From positions 1 through 13,212 of the forward strand of contig JBHLNT010000117.1 of the NCBI GenBank assembly GCA_048941265.1: a stretch of DNA of 13,212 nt, given 5' to 3'. Numbering within the stretch: the stretch's first letter is position 1; each line of letters begins with the position of its first letter. The notes below the pieces were generated by a model. The model searched no databases and was not told the DNA's origin. It worked only from the letters and a program-made list of their open reading frames with translations. A program made the translations under genes and the position numbers. This stretch comes from Promethearchaeota archaeon (lineage in GTDB: Archaea; Asgardarchaeota; Lokiarchaeia; Sigyniarchaeales; SOKP01). Below, piece by piece: positions 1,558 through 13,176 of this stretch.

Positions 1558-3927
1558 ATGACTGATAATTGCTTATTCTGTGATTCTAAAAGTATAGATT
1601 TTAAATGTGAAAAATGTAAATCAAGTTTTTGTCTCAACCATATGGCAACCACCGAGAGTTGGGAATGTAAAAAACATATTGACTTAAAATATTCTAAATC
1701 AGATGCAGTAGAAAATAATTATAAATGTTCCGTTATCGAGAATAGTAGATGTCCTGAATGTGATTCTTTATTGAGAATTAAAAGACTATCTTCGGGACAA
1801 TTTTATTTAAGCTGTACCAAATGTGCTTGGAATTCATATGAAAATACACCAGGTTTATTTTTTCCGTCAAAAGATCAGCTTACAAGAGAAGCAAGAAGAT
1901 ATAACCTTCTTACAGGGTCTTCTATGAAAGAGTGTCAGAAAAAGCTAAAGTACACAAGTGGACGCAGAGTTTGTCCTAATTGTTTTTTAGAGCTTTTAAA
2001 ACGAGCTGTAACTACGAATTTTTCCACAATAATGGACTCATTTAACATTACAGCAGAGCAAATGATCAAATTAATCAAACAGTATATTGAAGAAGATCGG
2101 ATTTATGGAATTATAGACCAGAAAAATCGGATGTTTTATTATATCTCAGATGAAATGAGAGAGAAATTAATTTCAAAAATTCAGAATGAAGGTGCAATTA
2201 AAGTAGCAGATTTAGGAATAATGCTTGATATGAACGCTGAAATGGCCCTTCAAGTAGTTTATAAACTCATTAGTCAGCATCAAATTAGAGGTTCATTTTC
2301 TAAGGAAAAGAAGAATTATTTCACTCAGAAATATATTACTGATAATCTAATTAAAAAGATTAAAGAAAAAGGAAGAATATCTATAGACGATCTAGCCAGA
2401 AATTTTAACATCCCTTCTGAGTTAATCAAAAACTTTTGTGTGAATTTGATGAGAACAAAGATGATTGACGCTTTCTTCGCCGATAGAGGTAAAGAAATTG
2501 TGACTACTGATCAACTACATAATGAAATAAAAAAATATGCGAAAGAAATTGGTGTTGTAAAGCTTAATAAACTTGCTGAAAAAGAGAATATTGCCGAAGA
2601 ACTAGCGCGAAAAACTCTACATGAAATGATTAAACAAGGAGTTATAAGAGGTATTTTCACACAACGCAGAGAATTCATGACGATGAAGCACCTTGAAGTA
2701 AAAATAAAAGAACTTGCCAGAGCGTATAGGAACATGTCATTACGGGAAATTTCAAACAGGTTAGGAATTACAGAAGCAAGTGTGGAAGAAAATTTAGCCA
2801 GATTAATAGGGCAGGGAGATATTGATGGATATATTGATTCAGAAAAAAAATTATTTGTTGCATATAGTGTACCTTTAGAGGGTAGAAAGGCTGCTCCCGC
2901 AAAAGGCAAAGAAGTTAAAGAAGGAGAAAATAACATAGAAGTATTAAGAGATTATGACTTTGAGGGTGGACAGCTTCATTTTAAAGTCGTAGTTAGAAAT
3001 CATAGTACTATGGCAATTAATAATGTGAAAGTTGTCTTAGATGTACCCACCAGTTATAATGTAAAGCAACCATTAATTACTATACCAGTAATAGAGTCAA
3101 ATAATTCCCGAGGAGTAGACTTTTATTTAGAACCAAAAGAATGTGGAATATCCAACATAGGAGGAACTGTAATCTTTAAAAATGCATTAGGCGAACAAAA
3201 TACAATTCATGTGAGGAAGAAAGAGGTTCAGATAAAATGTCCCTTGGTATGTACTTCAATGAGCACTATTGAAGATTGCCAACTTTCGATTCAGGATCTT
3301 CCGAATGATGCTCGAGCTTTTTTAATAGCCGATTTAGATCCAAGACTTGCTTATAGAGCGGCTATTAGAGCGTTAAAATACTTTGAAACAAGCATGGTAA
3401 CATCATATGAGAGCGGAGATGCTGCCAGCTCATATGAGGCTGAAGCCTGGTTCTGTGCAGAAGCAAAAGTCACAGGTGGGCGAATAATTACCAGAATCTT
3501 CGTTTCTGCAGCTAATCAATCTTTAGAAGTTCGCGTTTGGTGTGCAAATCCGGGACAACTCACTGGCTTTTTAGCAAGAGTAATTGAATTATTAATGGAG
3601 CAGATTGGGATAATCAGAAAAATCAAATCAGAAGAACGCGAGATAACAATAAATAGTATGGCTATAACGCAAAATTTAGCAGAGATTTCTGATTATTGTA
3701 TGCTAAGATGGAAAGCTCAAAATATTCGGACTAAATTACATGATACGTTTGTACGATTAAGGAAAATATTGAAAGAAGATGACCCAGTTTTAGATCGAAT
3801 AGAATTTTGGTTGACAAGATTAAATAAGTACGAAAAAGACGATAATATTACTGATGATGATGCGGATAAACTAGTAAATGATGTAGAACAATTCCGAAAT
3901 GTACTTACCAGAAGTCTAAAAATTTAG
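1558..3927 (+). CDS. Multidomain protein: N-terminal Zn fingers, five tandem winged-helix (PCI/DDRGK/UFL1-like) repeats, C-terminal beta-sandwich + alpha/beta + helical region
   Basis: 789-aa ORF. It begins with CxxC-x8-CxxC-x4-CxxH followed by further CxxC pairs. Repeats of about 60 aa follow the pattern GxIx(I/L)xxLA...(L/M)Ixxxx(I)xG, ending in the PCI-like YRNMSLREISNRLGITEASVEENLARLIGQGDIDGYID. The C-terminal domain starts IEVLRDYDFEGGQLHFKVVVRN. Confidence 0.75.
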   Translation: MTDNCLFCDSKSIDFKCEKCKSSFCLNHMATTESWECKKHIDLKYSKSDAVENNYKCSVIENSRCPECDSLLRIKRLSSGQFYLSCTKCAWNSYENTPGLFFPSKDQLTREARRYNLLTGSSMKECQKKLKYTSGRRVCPNCFLELLKRAVTTNFSTIMDSFNITAEQMIKLIKQYIEEDRIYGIIDQKNRMFYYISDEMREKLISKIQNEGAIKVADLGIMLDMNAEMALQVVYKLISQHQIRGSFSKEKKNYFTQKYITDNLIKKIKEKGRISIDDLARNFNIPSELIKNFCVNLMRTKMIDAFFADRGKEIVTTDQLHNEIKKYAKEIGVVKLNKLAEKENIAEELARKTLHEMIKQGVIRGIFTQRREFMTMKHLEVKIKELARAYRNMSLREISNRLGITEASVEENLARLIGQGDIDGYIDSEKKLFVAYSVPLEGRKAAPAKGKEVKEGENNIEVLRDYDFEGGQLHFKVVVRNHSTMAINNVKVVLDVPTSYNVKQPLITIPVIESNNSRGVDFYLEPKECGISNIGGTVIFKNALGEQNTIHVRKKEVQIKCPLVCTSMSTIEDCQLSIQDLPNDARAFLIADLDPRLAYRAAIRALKYFETSMVTSYESGDAASSYEAEAWFCAEAKVTGGRIITRIFVSAANQSLEVRVWCANPGQLTGFLARVIELLMEQIGIIRKIKSEEREITINSMAITQNLAEISDYCMLRWKAQNIRTKLHDTFVRLRKILKEDDPVLDRIEFWLTRLNKYEKDDNITDDDADKLVNDVEQFRNVLTRSLKI

Positions 3928-4878: not shown

Positions 4879-4976
4879 TAGCCCGACCAGGATTCGAACC
4901 TGGGTCTCGGGATTCAGAGTCCCAAATGCATTGCCTTCTAGTTTTTGCTAAAATTTGGCCACTACACTATCGGGCT
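4879..4976 (-). tRNA. tRNA-Gln(CUG) with 25-nt intron in the D-loop (intron 4930..4954)
   Basis: Minus strand: AGCCCGA TA GTGT AGTGGCCAA [ATTTTAGCAAAAACTAGAAGGCAAT] GCAT T TGGGA CT-CTG-AA TCCCG AGAC CCAGG TTCGAAT CCTGG TCGGGCT A. Removing the intron gives a 73-nt cloverleaf with the A1-U72 pair typical of archaeal tRNA-Gln. CCA is not encoded. Confidence 0.95.
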
Positions 4977-10137: not shown

Positions 10138-10770
10138 ATGGCAAAAGTAAAAATTGGAGCAATTGCATCGGGGAGTGGCTCAAATTTTGAAGCTATAGTT
10201 AAATCCACTGAAAGTGGAATTTTAAAAGATAAAGCAACCGTTGAGGTTTTAATTTGCAATAAGTCAGGAGCCTATTGTATGCAACGAGCTAAAAATCATA
10301 ACATTCCCCATACATTAATCGAATCCGATAAACATAAAGGTACTCGGGAAGAGTTTGACCAAAAAATGATCGATGTTCTTAAAGAATACGAATGTGAATT
10401 AATAGTACTTGTGGGATATATGAGGCTTGTTTCCTCAATGTTCATCAAAGCTTTCAATGGTAATGTTATGAATATACACCCCTCTTTATTACCTTCTTTT
10501 AAAGGAATGCATGCACACCGAGACGTTTTAGAATATGGAGTTAAAGTTTCTGGATGTACTGTTCATTTTGTCGATGCTGATGCTGACCACGGACCAATTA
10601 TTTTACAAAAATGCGTGAAAGTGCATGATAACGACACAGAAGACTCTCTTGGACCAAGAGTATTAGAATGGGAGCATAAAGTCTTCCCTAAATGTATTGA
10701 ACTTTATTGTGATAAAAGATTGCACATTGATGATCGAATCGTTAAAATTGATGGAGAAGTGAACTTATAA
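10138..10770 (+). CDS. purN: Phosphoribosylglycinamide formyltransferase
   Basis: Motifs ASGSGSNFEAI, LVGYMRLV, NIHPSLLPSFKG, GCTVHFVD..DHGPII and EH..FP. Confidence 0.95.
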   Translation: MAKVKIGAIASGSGSNFEAIVKSTESGILKDKATVEVLICNKSGAYCMQRAKNHNIPHTLIESDKHKGTREEFDQKMIDVLKEYECELIVLVGYMRLVSSMFIKAFNGNVMNIHPSLLPSFKGMHAHRDVLEYGVKVSGCTVHFVDADADHGPIILQKCVKVHDNDTEDSLGPRVLEWEHKVFPKCIELYCDKRLHIDDRIVKIDGEVNL

Positions 10771-10772
10771 AT
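10765..10772 (+). promoter_or_regulatory. Putative TATA box for the downstream C/D-like RNA, overlapping the purN stop codon
   Basis: TTATAAAT lies about 25-30 nt upstream of the start of the terminal stem at 10796/10797 and is preceded by a purine-rich BRE-like stretch. The AT-rich background lowers specificity. Confidence 0.45.
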
Positions 10773-10795
10773 AATTAATTCTAATAAAAATATTA

Positions 10796-10898
10796 AGGGA
10801 AATGATTTTTTAATGAGCCCTCTGACCCAGCTGAGATTGGTATTCGATATATCAATTAAATGAAGAAGATCTTGAGTAGCGAGAAAAGTCATTTCCCT
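10796..10898 (+). ncRNA. Box C/D-like 2'-O-methylation guide sRNA with two kink-turns
   Basis: 16-bp terminal stem 10796-10811/10883-10898. C-like ATGAGC at 10813, 12-nt guide 10819-10830, D' CTGA 10831-10834, 9-bp internal stem, C' ATGAAGA 10860-10866, 12-nt guide 10867-10878 and D-like GCGA 10879-10882. Confidence 0.75.
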
Positions 10899-10986: not shown

Positions 10987-13176
10987 ATGCCTCGTCGAAA
11001 AGAGATTTCTGAAATTTTAAGTTTAATGGAAAAAACACAGAACATTAGAAATATTGGATTTGTTGGACATATCGATCACGGTAAAACAACGTTATCTGAT
11101 TCACTCTTAAGCGAGGCAGGTTTACTTAGTCCAGAATTGGCGGGTGAGGCACGAGCTTTAGATTTTCTTGAAGAGGAACAAAAGCGGGGAATAACCATGA
11201 AATCTGCCAATATTTCGCTATATTACGAGAAATCTCTTGAGGGACATGAGCCTTTTCTAATTAATCTTGTGGATACTCCAGGACATTTAGATTTCAGTGG
11301 AAAAGTTACTAGGGCACTAAGACTTGTTGATGGGGTTGTAGTAGTCGTTGATGCCGTTGAAGAGATAATAACTCAATCGGAAACAGTAATAAGACAGGCA
11401 TTGCAGGAGGGAGTTAAACCCGCTCTTTTTATCAATAAAGTGGATAGACTAATTAGGGAATTAAAACTTACAGATGAAGAAATTAGGAAAAAATACGTAA
11501 GAATCATTAATGATTTTAATACATTAATAGAAAGGTATGCGACTCCACCTTTTAATAAAGAATGGAAAGTTTCTCCAGCTGAGGGAAATGTAGCGTTTGG
11601 TTCCGCGCTTCATAAGTGGGGCTTTACTGCAAAAATCATGGAAAAAAGCGATATCAAGTTTAGTGGGATTAGAGCACGATATAAAAAAGAGACATATTCT
11701 AAAGATTCTTATAGTGATTTGCAAATTTATCTTCCAATACACAGAGCCATCTTAGAAATGGTCGTTGATCATCTCCCAAATCCTAGTGAAGCTCAAAAAT
11801 ATAGAATTAAAAAGATCTACGAAGGAGATCTGAATACAGAAGTAGGGAGAGCTATGGTTAAATGCGATCCTAATGGTCCATTAATAATATGTTTGAGTAA
11901 AGTCCAAGCCGATAAACATGGTTTAGTTGCCACAGGAAGGATTTTTTCAGGTAAATGCTCTAAAAAAAGAGAGATATTTCTTTTAAGAGAAAATAATTAT
12001 GAAACTATTCAAAGAATAGGGATTTTCATGGGGCAAAGAAGAGAACAAGTAGATGAGATTCCAGTTGGAAACATTGTAGCTATAGAAGGTCTGAAAGAAA
12101 TTAAAAGTGGGGAAACTATAGTTGAGGCTAATTATCTTAATCAAATTATACCTTTTGAAAATGTGAAGTATATTACTACGCCAGTTGTTACAGCATCATT
12201 AGAGCCAGAATACTTAAGAGATCTAGATAAAATGAAAGAACTCATTGAAAATTTGTTAATTGAAGACCCTAATTTAAAGTTCGAAATTAATGAAGAAAAT
12301 GGGGAATTTTTATTATCAGGGATGGGGCCACTACATCTTGAAATCAGTACGAATGAATTAGCAAAAAGAGGAGTACTCGTTTCAATCTCTGAACCAAGAG
12401 CCGTATTTAAAGAGTCTTGTAAATATTATTCATCATTAATTAAAACTGTCTCCCCCAATGGTAAAAATGCACTTGAATTAAAAATAGAAAGACTTGATGA
12501 AAAATCTGTGAGATTCTTTCAATCTACAGATAACCGCTCCATAAAACCGTTTAGCAGATTACAAGAAGTTTTAAGAGAAAAATCTGGTCTTAGTGAGACA
12601 GAAGTCAAAAAATTTTGGAAAACTGATGAGGACCAGAACGTATTAATTTATTTAGGAAATTCTGAATTAAACGACTCTTCTAAGGATCTAATCCCTAAAA
12701 TAATAGAAAAAATTCATTTAAATGGCCCTCTCTGCGGCGAAAAAATAACAGAAATTAAAATTTTAATACATGAATTGAGTATTAGTGAATTAGATGAGGA
12801 AAGTGCTTTCACTGAATTATCTACTATGTTTTATGAAGCGATTAAAAAAGGATTAACTGAAAGTGAATTAATATTATTAGAACCCATATATCATACAATA
12901 ATCCAACTCCCTCCAGATTACATCAAAAACGTACTTACGCTTCTTTCAAAATATTCTGCTAAGATTAAAACTATTGACCAAGAAAAAGAATATCAAGCAA
13001 TTATTGAAATTTTATTACCTGTGAGGAATTCCATTAAATTTGCTGAGGATATCAGGTCAACAACGTCAGGAAGGGCATTCTGGCAAAATGAATTTTATGC
13101 TTTTATGGAAGTTCCCGAGCAAGAATCAAATGCTATTATAAGTGATTTGCGATTTACAAAAGGTCTATCATGGTAA
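10987..13176 (+). CDS. Archaeal elongation factor 2 paralog (aEF-2p-like) lacking the diphthamide motif
   Basis: Intact GTPase motifs GHIDHGKTT, RGITM, DTPGH, NKVD and GSA, plus EF-2 domain III/V motifs (EDP, GMGPLHLEI, LLEPIY, IRSTTSGRAFW). Domain IV is divergent, with SISELDEESAFTEL where HEDxxHRG is expected. Confidence 0.88.
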   Translation: MPRRKEISEILSLMEKTQNIRNIGFVGHIDHGKTTLSDSLLSEAGLLSPELAGEARALDFLEEEQKRGITMKSANISLYYEKSLEGHEPFLINLVDTPGHLDFSGKVTRALRLVDGVVVVVDAVEEIITQSETVIRQALQEGVKPALFINKVDRLIRELKLTDEEIRKKYVRIINDFNTLIERYATPPFNKEWKVSPAEGNVAFGSALHKWGFTAKIMEKSDIKFSGIRARYKKETYSKDSYSDLQIYLPIHRAILEMVVDHLPNPSEAQKYRIKKIYEGDLNTEVGRAMVKCDPNGPLIICLSKVQADKHGLVATGRIFSGKCSKKREIFLLRENNYETIQRIGIFMGQRREQVDEIPVGNIVAIEGLKEIKSGETIVEANYLNQIIPFENVKYITTPVVTASLEPEYLRDLDKMKELIENLLIEDPNLKFEINEENGEFLLSGMGPLHLEISTNELAKRGVLVSISEPRAVFKESCKYYSSLIKTVSPNGKNALELKIERLDEKSVRFFQSTDNRSIKPFSRLQEVLREKSGLSETEVKKFWKTDEDQNVLIYLGNSELNDSSKDLIPKIIEKIHLNGPLCGEKITEIKILIHELSISELDEESAFTELSTMFYEAIKKGLTESELILLEPIYHTIIQLPPDYIKNVLTLLSKYSAKIKTIDQEKEYQAIIEILLPVRNSIKFAEDIRSTTSGRAFWQNEFYAFMEVPEQESNAIISDLRFTKGLSW

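Follow-up and report, generated by a model that had tools for sequence, protein, structure and literature searches.

Known archaeal box C/D small RNAs (sRNAs) are compact, about 50 to 70 nucleotides (nt); they have consensus boxes and a K-loop, and their terminal stem is short or absent. The terminal stems of eukaryotic box C/D small nucleolar RNAs (snoRNAs) are short, and accessory pairing boosts weak snoRNA guides. In Euryarchaeota, the intron of the precursor transfer RNA pre-tRNA-Trp holds a box C/D guide for the 2′-O-methylated nucleotides Cm34 and Um39. The guide duplex of sR-tMet from Haloferax volcanii is said to span the anticodon loop and the adjoining intron and to methylate C34 of the tRNA-Met precursor, and this RNA reportedly has an atypical kink-turn. 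It is among the entries of a table in PMC4033218 (Joardar et al. 2011). In Pyrococcus, C/D sRNAs, a separate one for each tRNA, were predicted to target position 34 of tRNA-Leu(CAA) and tRNA-Leu(UAA) as well as of tRNA-Met and tRNA-Trp (Clouet-d'Orval et al. 2001, as cited in PMC7994747 and PMC7668247), and SNORD97/SCARNA97 is given as the guide for Cm34 of human elongator tRNA-Met (PMC6601510). Here, we analyzed a 13,212-nt stretch of DNA, the window, from a Promethearchaeota archaeon (contig JBHLNT010000117.1 of assembly GCA_048941265.1). Positions 10796 to 10898 of its + strand hold a conserved gene, which is more than a product of chance. We propose that this locus encodes a single-copy, trans-acting box C/D-type guide sRNA of about 103 nt for 2′-O-methylation, present in two families of Promethearchaeia, whose D guide would direct methylation of wobble cytidine C34 of tRNA-Leu(CAA).

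The predicted RNA resembles the Pyrococcus sRNAs in its machinery, in the rule that places the target nucleotide opposite the fifth base upstream of box D (+5), and in the target nucleotide itself. Since C/D guidance to position 34 of tRNA-Leu(CAA) has been predicted in Pyrococcus, the C34 target is not new. Unlike the Pyrococcus sRNAs, as judged from their descriptions, members of this family are 89 to 120 nt long, with a terminal stem of 11 to 16 base pairs (bp), a C′/D′ motif closed by a hairpin, and degenerate outer boxes. The locus shares with sR-tMet a wobble-cytidine C/D guide, an intron-containing precursor, and an atypical kink-turn; in contrast to sR-tMet, the duplex of its second guide, D′, would be fully intronic, with an intron G as the +5 nucleotide. 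With the pre-tRNA-Trp intron it has in common a link of tRNA introns with C/D-guided methylation of the anticodon arm before splicing. There, however, the intron is the guide, whereas here a gene of its own encodes the guide and the intron would serve as its target or tag. Like eukaryotic box C/D snoRNAs, the RNA would have a terminal stem that clamps the C/D kink-turn, a longer body with internal structure, and a wobble-cytidine target.

The source genome (G000; the window is its contig C92) is a 5.0-Mb assembly of 361 contigs with 30.5% G+C, rated 91% complete. The parts of the element are given below, with counts from the 61 distinct sequences that were parsed for kink-turns and guides after one sequence interrupted by N's had been dropped.

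10796-10811 (+): 5′ strand of the terminal stem, AGGGAAAUGAUUUUUU
10812-10814 (+): 3-nt bulge of the outer kink-turn, AAU (AAU in 23/61; third base U in 58/61)
10813-10819 (+): box C-like AUGAGCC; the sheared pairs use G10815 and A10816, and the D-like box is the pairing partner of G10817 and C10818
10820-10830 (+): D′ guide, CUCUGACCCAG, with the conserved core UCUGACCCA at 10821-10829 and C10826 at the +5 position
10831-10834 (+): box D′, CUGA (CUGA in 51, CGGA in 7, AUGA in 2, CCGA in 1)
10835-10857 (+): internal hairpin closing C′/D′, 9 bp (10835-10843/10849-10857) with a 5-nt loop and two G.U pairs
10860-10866 (+): box C′, AUGAAGA (42/61; AUGACGA in six)
10867-10878 (+): D guide, AGAUCUUGAGUA, with G10874 five bases upstream of the D-like box
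10879-10882 (+): box D-like GCGA; the box ends in GA in 58/61 (AUGA in 29, GCGA in 17)
10883-10898 (+): 3′ strand of the terminal stem, GAAAAGUCAUUUCCCU

The two strands of the terminal stem form 16 pairs, 14 Watson-Crick and 2 G.U, and the outer kink-turn that follows is built from G10815.A10882, A10816.G10881, G10817-C10880, and C10818-G10879. Judged from sequence, the geometry is that of a kink-turn: a stem, a 3-nt bulge, tandem sheared pairs, and a noncanonical stem. The internal C′/D′ motif is likewise present (AUGAAGA with CUGA), closed by a hairpin instead of a K-loop. The + strand folds at −27.1 kcal/mol (z = −2.89; 1 of 200 shuffles as good) with both guides open in the centroid; the fold of the − strand is weaker and is matched by 19 of 200 shuffles (z = −1.46). 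Each element that the original prediction had placed here was recovered in its place. One detail did not stand: both guides had been given as 12 nt, but if box C is read in its canonical 7-nt frame, 11 nt are left for the D′ spacer (10820-10830). The RNA thus has the two guide spacers of an archaeal C/D sRNA, 11 and 12 nt. It lacks the compact size and short stem, with 103 nt in the window and terminal stems of 11 to 16 bp in 60/61 sequences. Since the outer boxes keep only UGA...GA, with CUGA as the D box in 2/61, the element would escape consensus-box searches, as had been anticipated. Rfam gave no match at gathering scores, and a permissive search of it returned three chance-level matches with E values above 5. 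A search for paralogues carrying the terminal-stem sequence found none.

The evidence for the target comes from the D guide. The tRNA-Leu(CAA) gene of the same genome (G000:C212, − strand, about 3549-3706; locus L011:1918-2080, − strand) contains ACUCAAGAUC, and the D guide pairs with these 10 nt of the mature tRNA and with 11 nt of the precursor, ACUCAAGAUCU. The original prediction had described this guide as antisense to the anticodon loop of tRNA-Leu(CAA), and the genome's own gene bears this out, with G10874 opposite C34 by the +5 rule. When the guide was shuffled 5000 times, an 11-nt match to at least one of the 26 tRNA loci arose in 6 cases. The 10-mer of the D guide has four sites in the genome, one of them the antisense of the RNA gene itself. 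Both sides of the pairing are conserved: GAUCUUGAGU of the guide occurs in 61/61 sequences and AGAUCUUGAGU in 55/61, and the target sequence in tRNA-Leu(CAA) is retained in relatives. In 12 of 14 genomes of the larger family (f1), the intron of pre-tRNA-Leu(CAA) opens with AUCU, which adds an eleventh pair with the D guide. The guide of G013 starts with G and its intron with AUCC, such that G pairs with C; the mature tRNA also has a C there. For covariation of the first D-guide base with the fourth intron base, G013 was the only genome that could be read; in the five genomes with a guide beginning in U, neither BLAST (E ≤1e-6) nor a pattern search located the tRNA-Leu(CAA) gene.

The same D guide also occurs in an ordinary C/D sRNA. 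A Thermoproteota metagenome-assembled genome (JAOZGF010000264.1) carries a canonical 77-nt C/D sRNA (L210:3974-4050, +) about 1.4 kb downstream of an EF-2 gene. Its D guide is identical over AGAUCUUGAGU, and its box order and spacers equal those of the Promethearchaeia element; this ties the Loki RNA to ordinary C/D guides. Unlike the element, L210 has a 6-bp stem, GAUGAAG and CUGA boxes, and a 6-nt C′/D′ loop. Its D′ core, UCGAACCCA, differs from UCUGACCCA at 2/9 positions and, as read from the sequence, is complementary to the T-arm-like UGGGUUCGA and not to the intron motif described below. The linkage to EF-2 in two phyla may be coincidence or old synteny.

We then considered how widely the RNA is conserved. 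BLAST found full-length relatives of the element in 14/40 related genomes (E ≤2.3e-6); other matches were short and chance-like. The relatives' loci belong to Promethearchaeota/Promethearchaeia, the Asgard lineage that includes the Loki group. A covariance model was built from 14 sequences, leaving out that of G023, which is cut by a contig end, and two loci that match the first 34 bases only. With this model, matches were found in 110/151 genomes of the class: 102/126 in f1, 7/13 in a second family (f2), and 0/11 in five other families. The element is single-copy in all but one of the matching genomes; G066 holds two full copies, on different contigs. With the EF-2-like protein encoded downstream as bait, 77 loci were collected, and 62 of these had one match on the + strand. 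The other 15 comprise 10 from other phyla, 2 with no upstream sequence, and 3 with other DNA upstream. At the corresponding place in G006 and G004 (loci L043 and L042), only the first 34 bases of the query are shared, both guides are missing, and no copy of the D guide was found elsewhere.

Covariation supports the fold. In an alignment of 71 matches (70 distinct rows), fitted to the model and to that extent favoring the structure, 89.6% of the modelled cells are paired, compared to 70.1% in shuffles. All 22 modelled pairs change on both sides, and 0/500 shuffles attain any of five measures; when partners are slid, pairing falls to 37 to 59%. The two helices of the terminal stem are paired in 97.7% and 93.9% of cells, with two-sided changes at every pair, and two-sided changes occur at 7/7 modelled pairs of the internal hairpin (helix 4). 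The terminal stems of f2 have wholly different sequences, and pairing is nonetheless kept. The stretch from D′ to C′ varies from 6 to 37 nt among relatives, with 0 to 14 pairs in the folded hairpin. On either side of it the spacing is constant: the stretch ahead of D′ was counted as 12 nt in 60/61 sequences, and the stretch from C′ to D is 12 nt by parsing. The boxes and guides, which the original prediction had expected to be kept in relatives, are found across the 61 distinct sequences.

The kink-turn pairs vary in a similar manner. In the outer motif, 1b.1n is G.A in 61/61 sequences, and 2b.2n is A.G in 42, U.G in 10, C-G in 6, and other in 3. The closing pairs of this motif are the most diverse: 3b.3n is A-U in 32, G-C in 19, G.U in 3, U.U in 3, U-A in 1, and other in 3, and 4b.4n is C-G in 21, A.A in 21, U-A in 7, A-U in 7, G-C in 2, and other in 3. 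The GC/GC outer boxes of the window had been explained as a compensatory change that preserves the kink-turn, and this idea is borne out because the outer closing pairs covary elsewhere among the 61 sequences. The commonest outer form is xUUGAAA with AUGA; f2 members have GAUGAUA or GAUGAAA, nearer to the consensus. The inner motif is more uniform, with G.A at 1b.1n in 61/61, A.G (54) or U.G (7) at 2b.2n, A-U in 49, C-G in 6, U.U in 3, and other in 3 at 3b.3n, and G-C in 59 and other in 2 at 4b.4n. The six C-G pairs at 3b.3n are cases of AUGACGA paired with CGGA. The source genome encodes the proteins that such an RNA would need: fibrillarin (261.8 bits) and Nop5 (212 bits), both on contig C193, and two L7Ae-family genes (81.5 and 48.7 bits), with all three families above the Pfam cutoffs.

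Taken together, these data suggest the following mechanism. Each of the two kink-turns would bind L7Ae, followed by Nop5 and fibrillarin. The outer one would be a degenerate C/D pair clamped by the A/U-rich terminal stem of 11 to 16 bp, and the inner one a near-canonical C′/D′ motif closed by a variable hairpin rather than a short K-loop. Within this ribonucleoprotein (RNP), the 12-nt D guide would settle on the anticodon loop of tRNA-Leu(CAA) and set C34 at +5 for conversion to Cm34. Considering the anatomy, the register, the conservation, and the precedent, we favor a C/D-type RNP that would methylate C34 of tRNA-Leu(CAA) through the D guide, and we put the probability of the whole picture at about 0.8. 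The Cm34-guide function that had been proposed for this locus is thus favored by conservation, covariation, the +5 register, and the presence of the protein genes. The D′ guide would pair through its 9-nt core with an intronic motif, UGGGUCAGA, found in the anticodon loop of tRNA(CAU) genes in most genomes and, in one family, also in the D-loop of tRNA-Leu(UAA). Because this motif lies only inside tRNA introns, the RNP would also engage unspliced precursors. As for what the D′-intron duplex does, it may lead to methylation of the +5 G of the intron, serve for docking, or control folding and splicing.

The D′ guide, to which the original prediction had assigned no target, is the more unusual half of the RNA. 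The case for its target was built from the D′ core, which is invariant in 57/61 sequences while the flanking bases vary. Its complement, UGGGUCAGA, has 11 sites in the source genome, one of which is the element's own antisense. Only one site, C183:8496-8504, falls within an RNA gene, namely an elongator-type tRNA(CAU) gene (C183:8413-8549, +), and it is part of that gene's anticodon-loop intron. This tagged CAU tRNA may be either elongator Met or Ile2; an initiator-type gene is located elsewhere, on C212. In G001, G016, and G022, the tRNA(CAU) intron is likewise the only recurring RNA-gene context (for G016, 13/15 sites were viewed). When tRNA(CAU) genes were aligned (n = 18), the 9-mer was present in 16 and AGGGUCAGA in two. 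In f2, the search for tRNA(CAU) by an anticodon-arm pattern gave mostly random sites (30 of 59 viewed), and a direct motif search was used instead. G030 of that family has the 9-mer in a tRNA(CAU) intron with otherwise unrelated flanks. In G038, which is a complete genome, the 9-mer is confined to the D-loop intron of tRNA-Leu(UAA). The tagged intron probably sits at 37/38 in the tRNA(CAU) of f1, where position 38 is variable.

Changes in the D′ guide are matched in these introns. In G018, the guide UCUGACCCU (...CCCU) meets the intron sequence AGGGUCAGA (AGGG...). In G148, the guide UCUGACCUA (...CCUA) meets UAGGUCAGA (UAGG...), both in the tRNA(CAU) intron and in the D-loop intron of tRNA-Leu(UAA), and none of the 15 UGGGUCAGA sites of this genome lies in a tRNA-like context by eye. 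In G013, the terminal pair is lost and a G-C pair is gained at the opposite end, a register shift that keeps 9 bp. The tRNA(CAU) gene of G042 was not found. The D′ duplex is wholly intronic, about 20 nt from C34, and so depends on the intron. At +5, the D′ guide faces the third base of the intron GGG (AGG in G148), a base that splicing removes; the nucleotide set by the D guide, C34, stays in the mature tRNA. We think that the D′ guide probably does pair with the intron tag.

The tagged tRNA(CAU) genes show two further features. A D-loop intron is variable, being present in about half of the relatives (loci L057-L074). In three or four relatives (G002, G005, G006, and G043), the tagged intron is at 32/33, adjoining a degenerate copy of the anticodon loop; it looks as if the intron had been moved by duplication of the 5′ half of the anticodon arm.

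Docking could connect the two guides: the intron tag would bring pre-tRNA(CAU) and pre-tRNA-Leu(UAA) to the same RNP, and the D guide would then methylate their near-cognate wobble nucleotides. The D guide is perfect for tRNA-Leu(CAA) only. With tRNA-Leu(UAA), by eye, it makes 10 to 11 pairs, with G.U at position 34, and with the CAU tRNA it makes 5+3 pairs (−8.6 kcal/mol). Two facts make the possibility attractive: both tagged tRNAs, CAU and Leu(UAA), are near-cognates of the D guide, and both belong to the four tRNAs with predicted separate wobble guides in Pyrococcus. We nevertheless consider it unlikely because tRNA-Leu(CAG), which is about equally near-cognate, has no tag in the source genome. 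A search for a second sRNA directed to C34 of the CAU tRNA gave no site with the look of a guide beside a box among 30 of 102 GATTATGAG sites.

The genes and signals around the RNA are as follows.

10138-10770 (+): putative purN (the name given in the original prediction), 210 amino acids, the upstream neighbor; homologues lie directly upstream of the RNA in 12/14 relatives' loci
10765-10774 (+): TATA-like UUAUAAAUAA, a putative promoter element about 22 to 31 nt upstream of the stem, overlapping the putative purN stop codon
10899-10916 (+): pyrimidine- and U-rich trailer CUCUUAUCUCUAUUUUAU, a candidate archaeal oligo-U terminator
10987-13176 (+): EF-2-like GTPase, 729 amino acids, the downstream neighbor, earlier called an EF-2 paralog

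The RNA starts about 26 nt past the putative purN stop and ends about 88 nt before the EF-2-like start. Among genomes with the element, it almost always directly follows putative purN. Across 61 loci, the consensus between about −30 and −20 is TTAAATTATAA, and the 3′ strand of the stem is followed by a T-run; the TATA-like block and the T-run would fit a separate transcription unit. In G001 (C9, about 661871-663600; L038 and L147), an extra gene parts the RNA from the EF-2-like gene, and the RNA stays beside putative purN. The record behind L148 has an extra gene between the RNA's expected place and the EF-2-like gene.

Several observations weigh against our interpretation. The outer boxes, AUGAGCC and GCGA, fail the RUGAUGA/CUGA consensus. 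Position 2b is a weak point: between a fifth and a third of the outer motifs have no second sheared pair, and these may be poor predicted binders of L7Ae. In the inner motif, the second sheared pair is U.G in 7/61. Several nearly complete f1 genomes (G006, G019, and G060, each 99% complete, and G011, 98%) gave neither a model match nor an sRNA-like D-guide site. Three of them, G006, G019, and G011, retain the intron 9-mer, so the tag can persist without a detectable guide. The change in the G043 D′ guide is uncompensated, leaving 8 bp. On the source genome alone, the D′ match is modest, being equaled by 148/5000 shuffles, and methylation of an intron is without obvious use. The D guide of G030 makes 10 bp with spliced tRNA-Leu(CAA) and only 7+2 bp with the precursor, which means that the precursor is not always the better D substrate. 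Finally, the 12 sequencing runs tied to the locus are all of DNA or unknown type, and none is recorded as RNA.

We weighed other explanations against methylation of C34. The RNP may act mainly as a chaperone or timer of intron-containing pre-tRNAs, governing the folding of the bulge-helix-bulge and hence splicing. This fits the exclusive pairing of the D′ guide with intron sequence. In the tRNA(CAU) of f1, part of the 9-mer is the 3′ arm of a 5-bp hairpin (UCUGA/UCAGA), and blocking it removes the hairpin, with a change from −14.8 to −8.9 kcal/mol. As read from the alignment, formation of the D duplex would unwind the central helix, CUCA/UGAG, in the splicing motif of tRNA-Leu(CAA), and the intron AUCU lengthens that duplex to 11 bp in the 12/14 f1 genomes. 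But the fixed 11- and 12-nt spacers and the exact +5 position on C34 suit a methyltransferase guide, and L210, a canonical compact C/D sRNA, has the same D guide. The motif flanks differ wholly between introns, so no common structural effect is evident, and no canonical splicing motif could be fitted to the f1 tRNA(CAU) intron, by hand or by folding, with the 9-mer blocked or free. We therefore regard a role mainly in splicing as improbable. It is less probable still that the true D′ target is a mature RNA, such as 23S ribosomal RNA (rRNA), and the intron match secondary. The 23S rRNAs of G016 and G024, it is true, carry AUGGGUUAGAAU, with nine contiguous pairs, one of them G.U, at −14.4 kcal/mol versus −16.3 kcal/mol at the intron site; this counts against a strict dependence between guide and intron, and the candidate 23S site is UGGGUUAGA. 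By a rough estimate, however, such a match has a chance of about 0.14 in about 4.6 kb of rRNA, no exact 8-mer was found in the relatives' 16S or 23S rRNAs examined, and the guide changes of G018 and G148 are matched in introns. No exact match to either guide was found in the relatives' rRNAs; the source assembly contains no assembled 16S or 23S rRNA.

Two further explanations do without a guide acting in trans. The element might belong in cis to a neighboring mRNA, as the 3′ untranslated region of purN or as a 5′ leader of the EF-2-like gene, regulating translation through a kink-turn to which L7Ae binds. The strict synteny, with the short distances given above and a gene order common to most relatives, would agree with this, and translational control through kink-turns bound by archaeal L7Ae has been proposed (PMC5539422). 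A cis element leaves unexplained two invariant single-stranded segments of 9 to 11 nt that are complementary to tRNAs and whose changes are matched in trans. Moreover, the extra gene in G001 sets the RNA about 1.65 kb from the EF-2-like gene, and the stretch from the RNA to the EF-2-like gene at the loci compared includes a T-run and a second conserved A/T-rich block. We judge this explanation very unlikely. It is hardly credible that the locus is no more than a hairpin arisen by chance in an A/T-rich spacer, or that it is a short coding frame. The genome is indeed A/T-rich (30.5% G+C), a 16-codon frame starts from an AUG at 10813, and a 62-codon open reading frame runs at 10704-10892 on the − strand. 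Against this, conservation and covariation extend across 110 genomes, and the G.U pairs are sensible on the + strand only. The D′-to-C′ segment ranges in length from 6 to 37 nt, not in steps of three, which rules out a coding frame. Methylation of C34 of tRNA-Leu(CAA) by a C/D-type RNP remains the reading that we prefer.

The original prediction had hinted at a hidden class of Asgard guide RNAs with long stems. We scanned the 5.0-Mb source genome with a descriptor (UGA..GA / UGAnGA..GA, fixed spacers, and a flanking stem), using the reversed sequence as a control. When the stem had at least 10 or at least 8 pairs, this locus was the only one found, with none in the control; the source genome thus did not bear out a class of long-stem guides. 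With the minimum stem lowered to 5, 6, and 7 pairs, 35, 13, and 6 loci were found, respectively, compared to 6, 1, and 0 in the reversed sequence. Given this excess at short stems, other, more compact C/D candidates probably exist in the genome. Compact C/D′/C′/D candidates with stems of 6 to 7 bp include C102:8044-8108 (−), C327:800-863 (+), C211:5599-5668 (+), and ten more, and these may be the ordinary C/D sRNAs of this organism.

The target gene itself is also of interest. An alignment of 17 tRNA-Leu(CAA) genes suggests two anticodon-loop introns, one at 37/38 and, in many genomes including the source genome, another at 32/33. The 37/38 intron has a textbook bulge-helix-bulge, in which CUCA of the anticodon loop pairs with UGAG of the conserved ...GAUGAGAU/A. 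The micro-exon between the two introns is 5 nt, UCAAG, positions 33 to 37, and the blocks UUCCGUUGA and CUGAUGAGAUA of the 37/38 intron are kept across two families. On C212, a tRNA-Leu(UAG) gene with a D-loop intron directly follows tRNA-Leu(CAA). ARAGORN and the Rfam tRNA model recover part of the tRNA set of the genome because most tRNA genes are interrupted. There are 26 matches to the tRNA model, 4 of them below the gathering score, and most of the genes found are interrupted. Within the window, ARAGORN calls a 65-nt tRNA-Gln(CUG) at 4879-4943 (−), which scores 25.9 bits in Rfam against a gathering score of 29 and is either a false call or an unusually disrupted gene.

We found no published description of methylation guide RNAs in Asgard archaea in a search whose scope lay outside subscription journals and the supplements of sRNA catalogues. 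Three aspects appear to be new, and the search gave no paper on any of them: the documentation of a guide RNA family in Asgard archaea; a clamp and hairpin like those of snoRNAs, together with outer boxes of which only UGA...GA is left; and a guide element directed at a motif exclusive to tRNA introns. The D′-intron pairing with its matched changes hints at what would be, as far as we know, the first C/D guide to address an intron-only tRNA sequence. The locus is a well-supported and widely conserved example of an Asgard guide RNA. Its long terminal stem and hairpin-closed C′/D′ motif are nearer to eukaryotic snoRNAs than to the sRNAs of thermophiles, which bears on the origin of snoRNA architecture.

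The intron tag bears on a second question. Asgard tRNA genes are heavily interrupted, and a recent census of them left the persistence of the introns open (10.64898/2026.10.13.758758); a term search of that preprint's text turned up neither guides nor methylation. If introns hold a functional tag, the question of their persistence becomes directly testable. If docking were true, one guide RNA would do the work of three Pyrococcus sRNAs, and the tagged introns would be retained because they license a modification. Asgard tRNA introns could then persist as address labels for guide RNPs.

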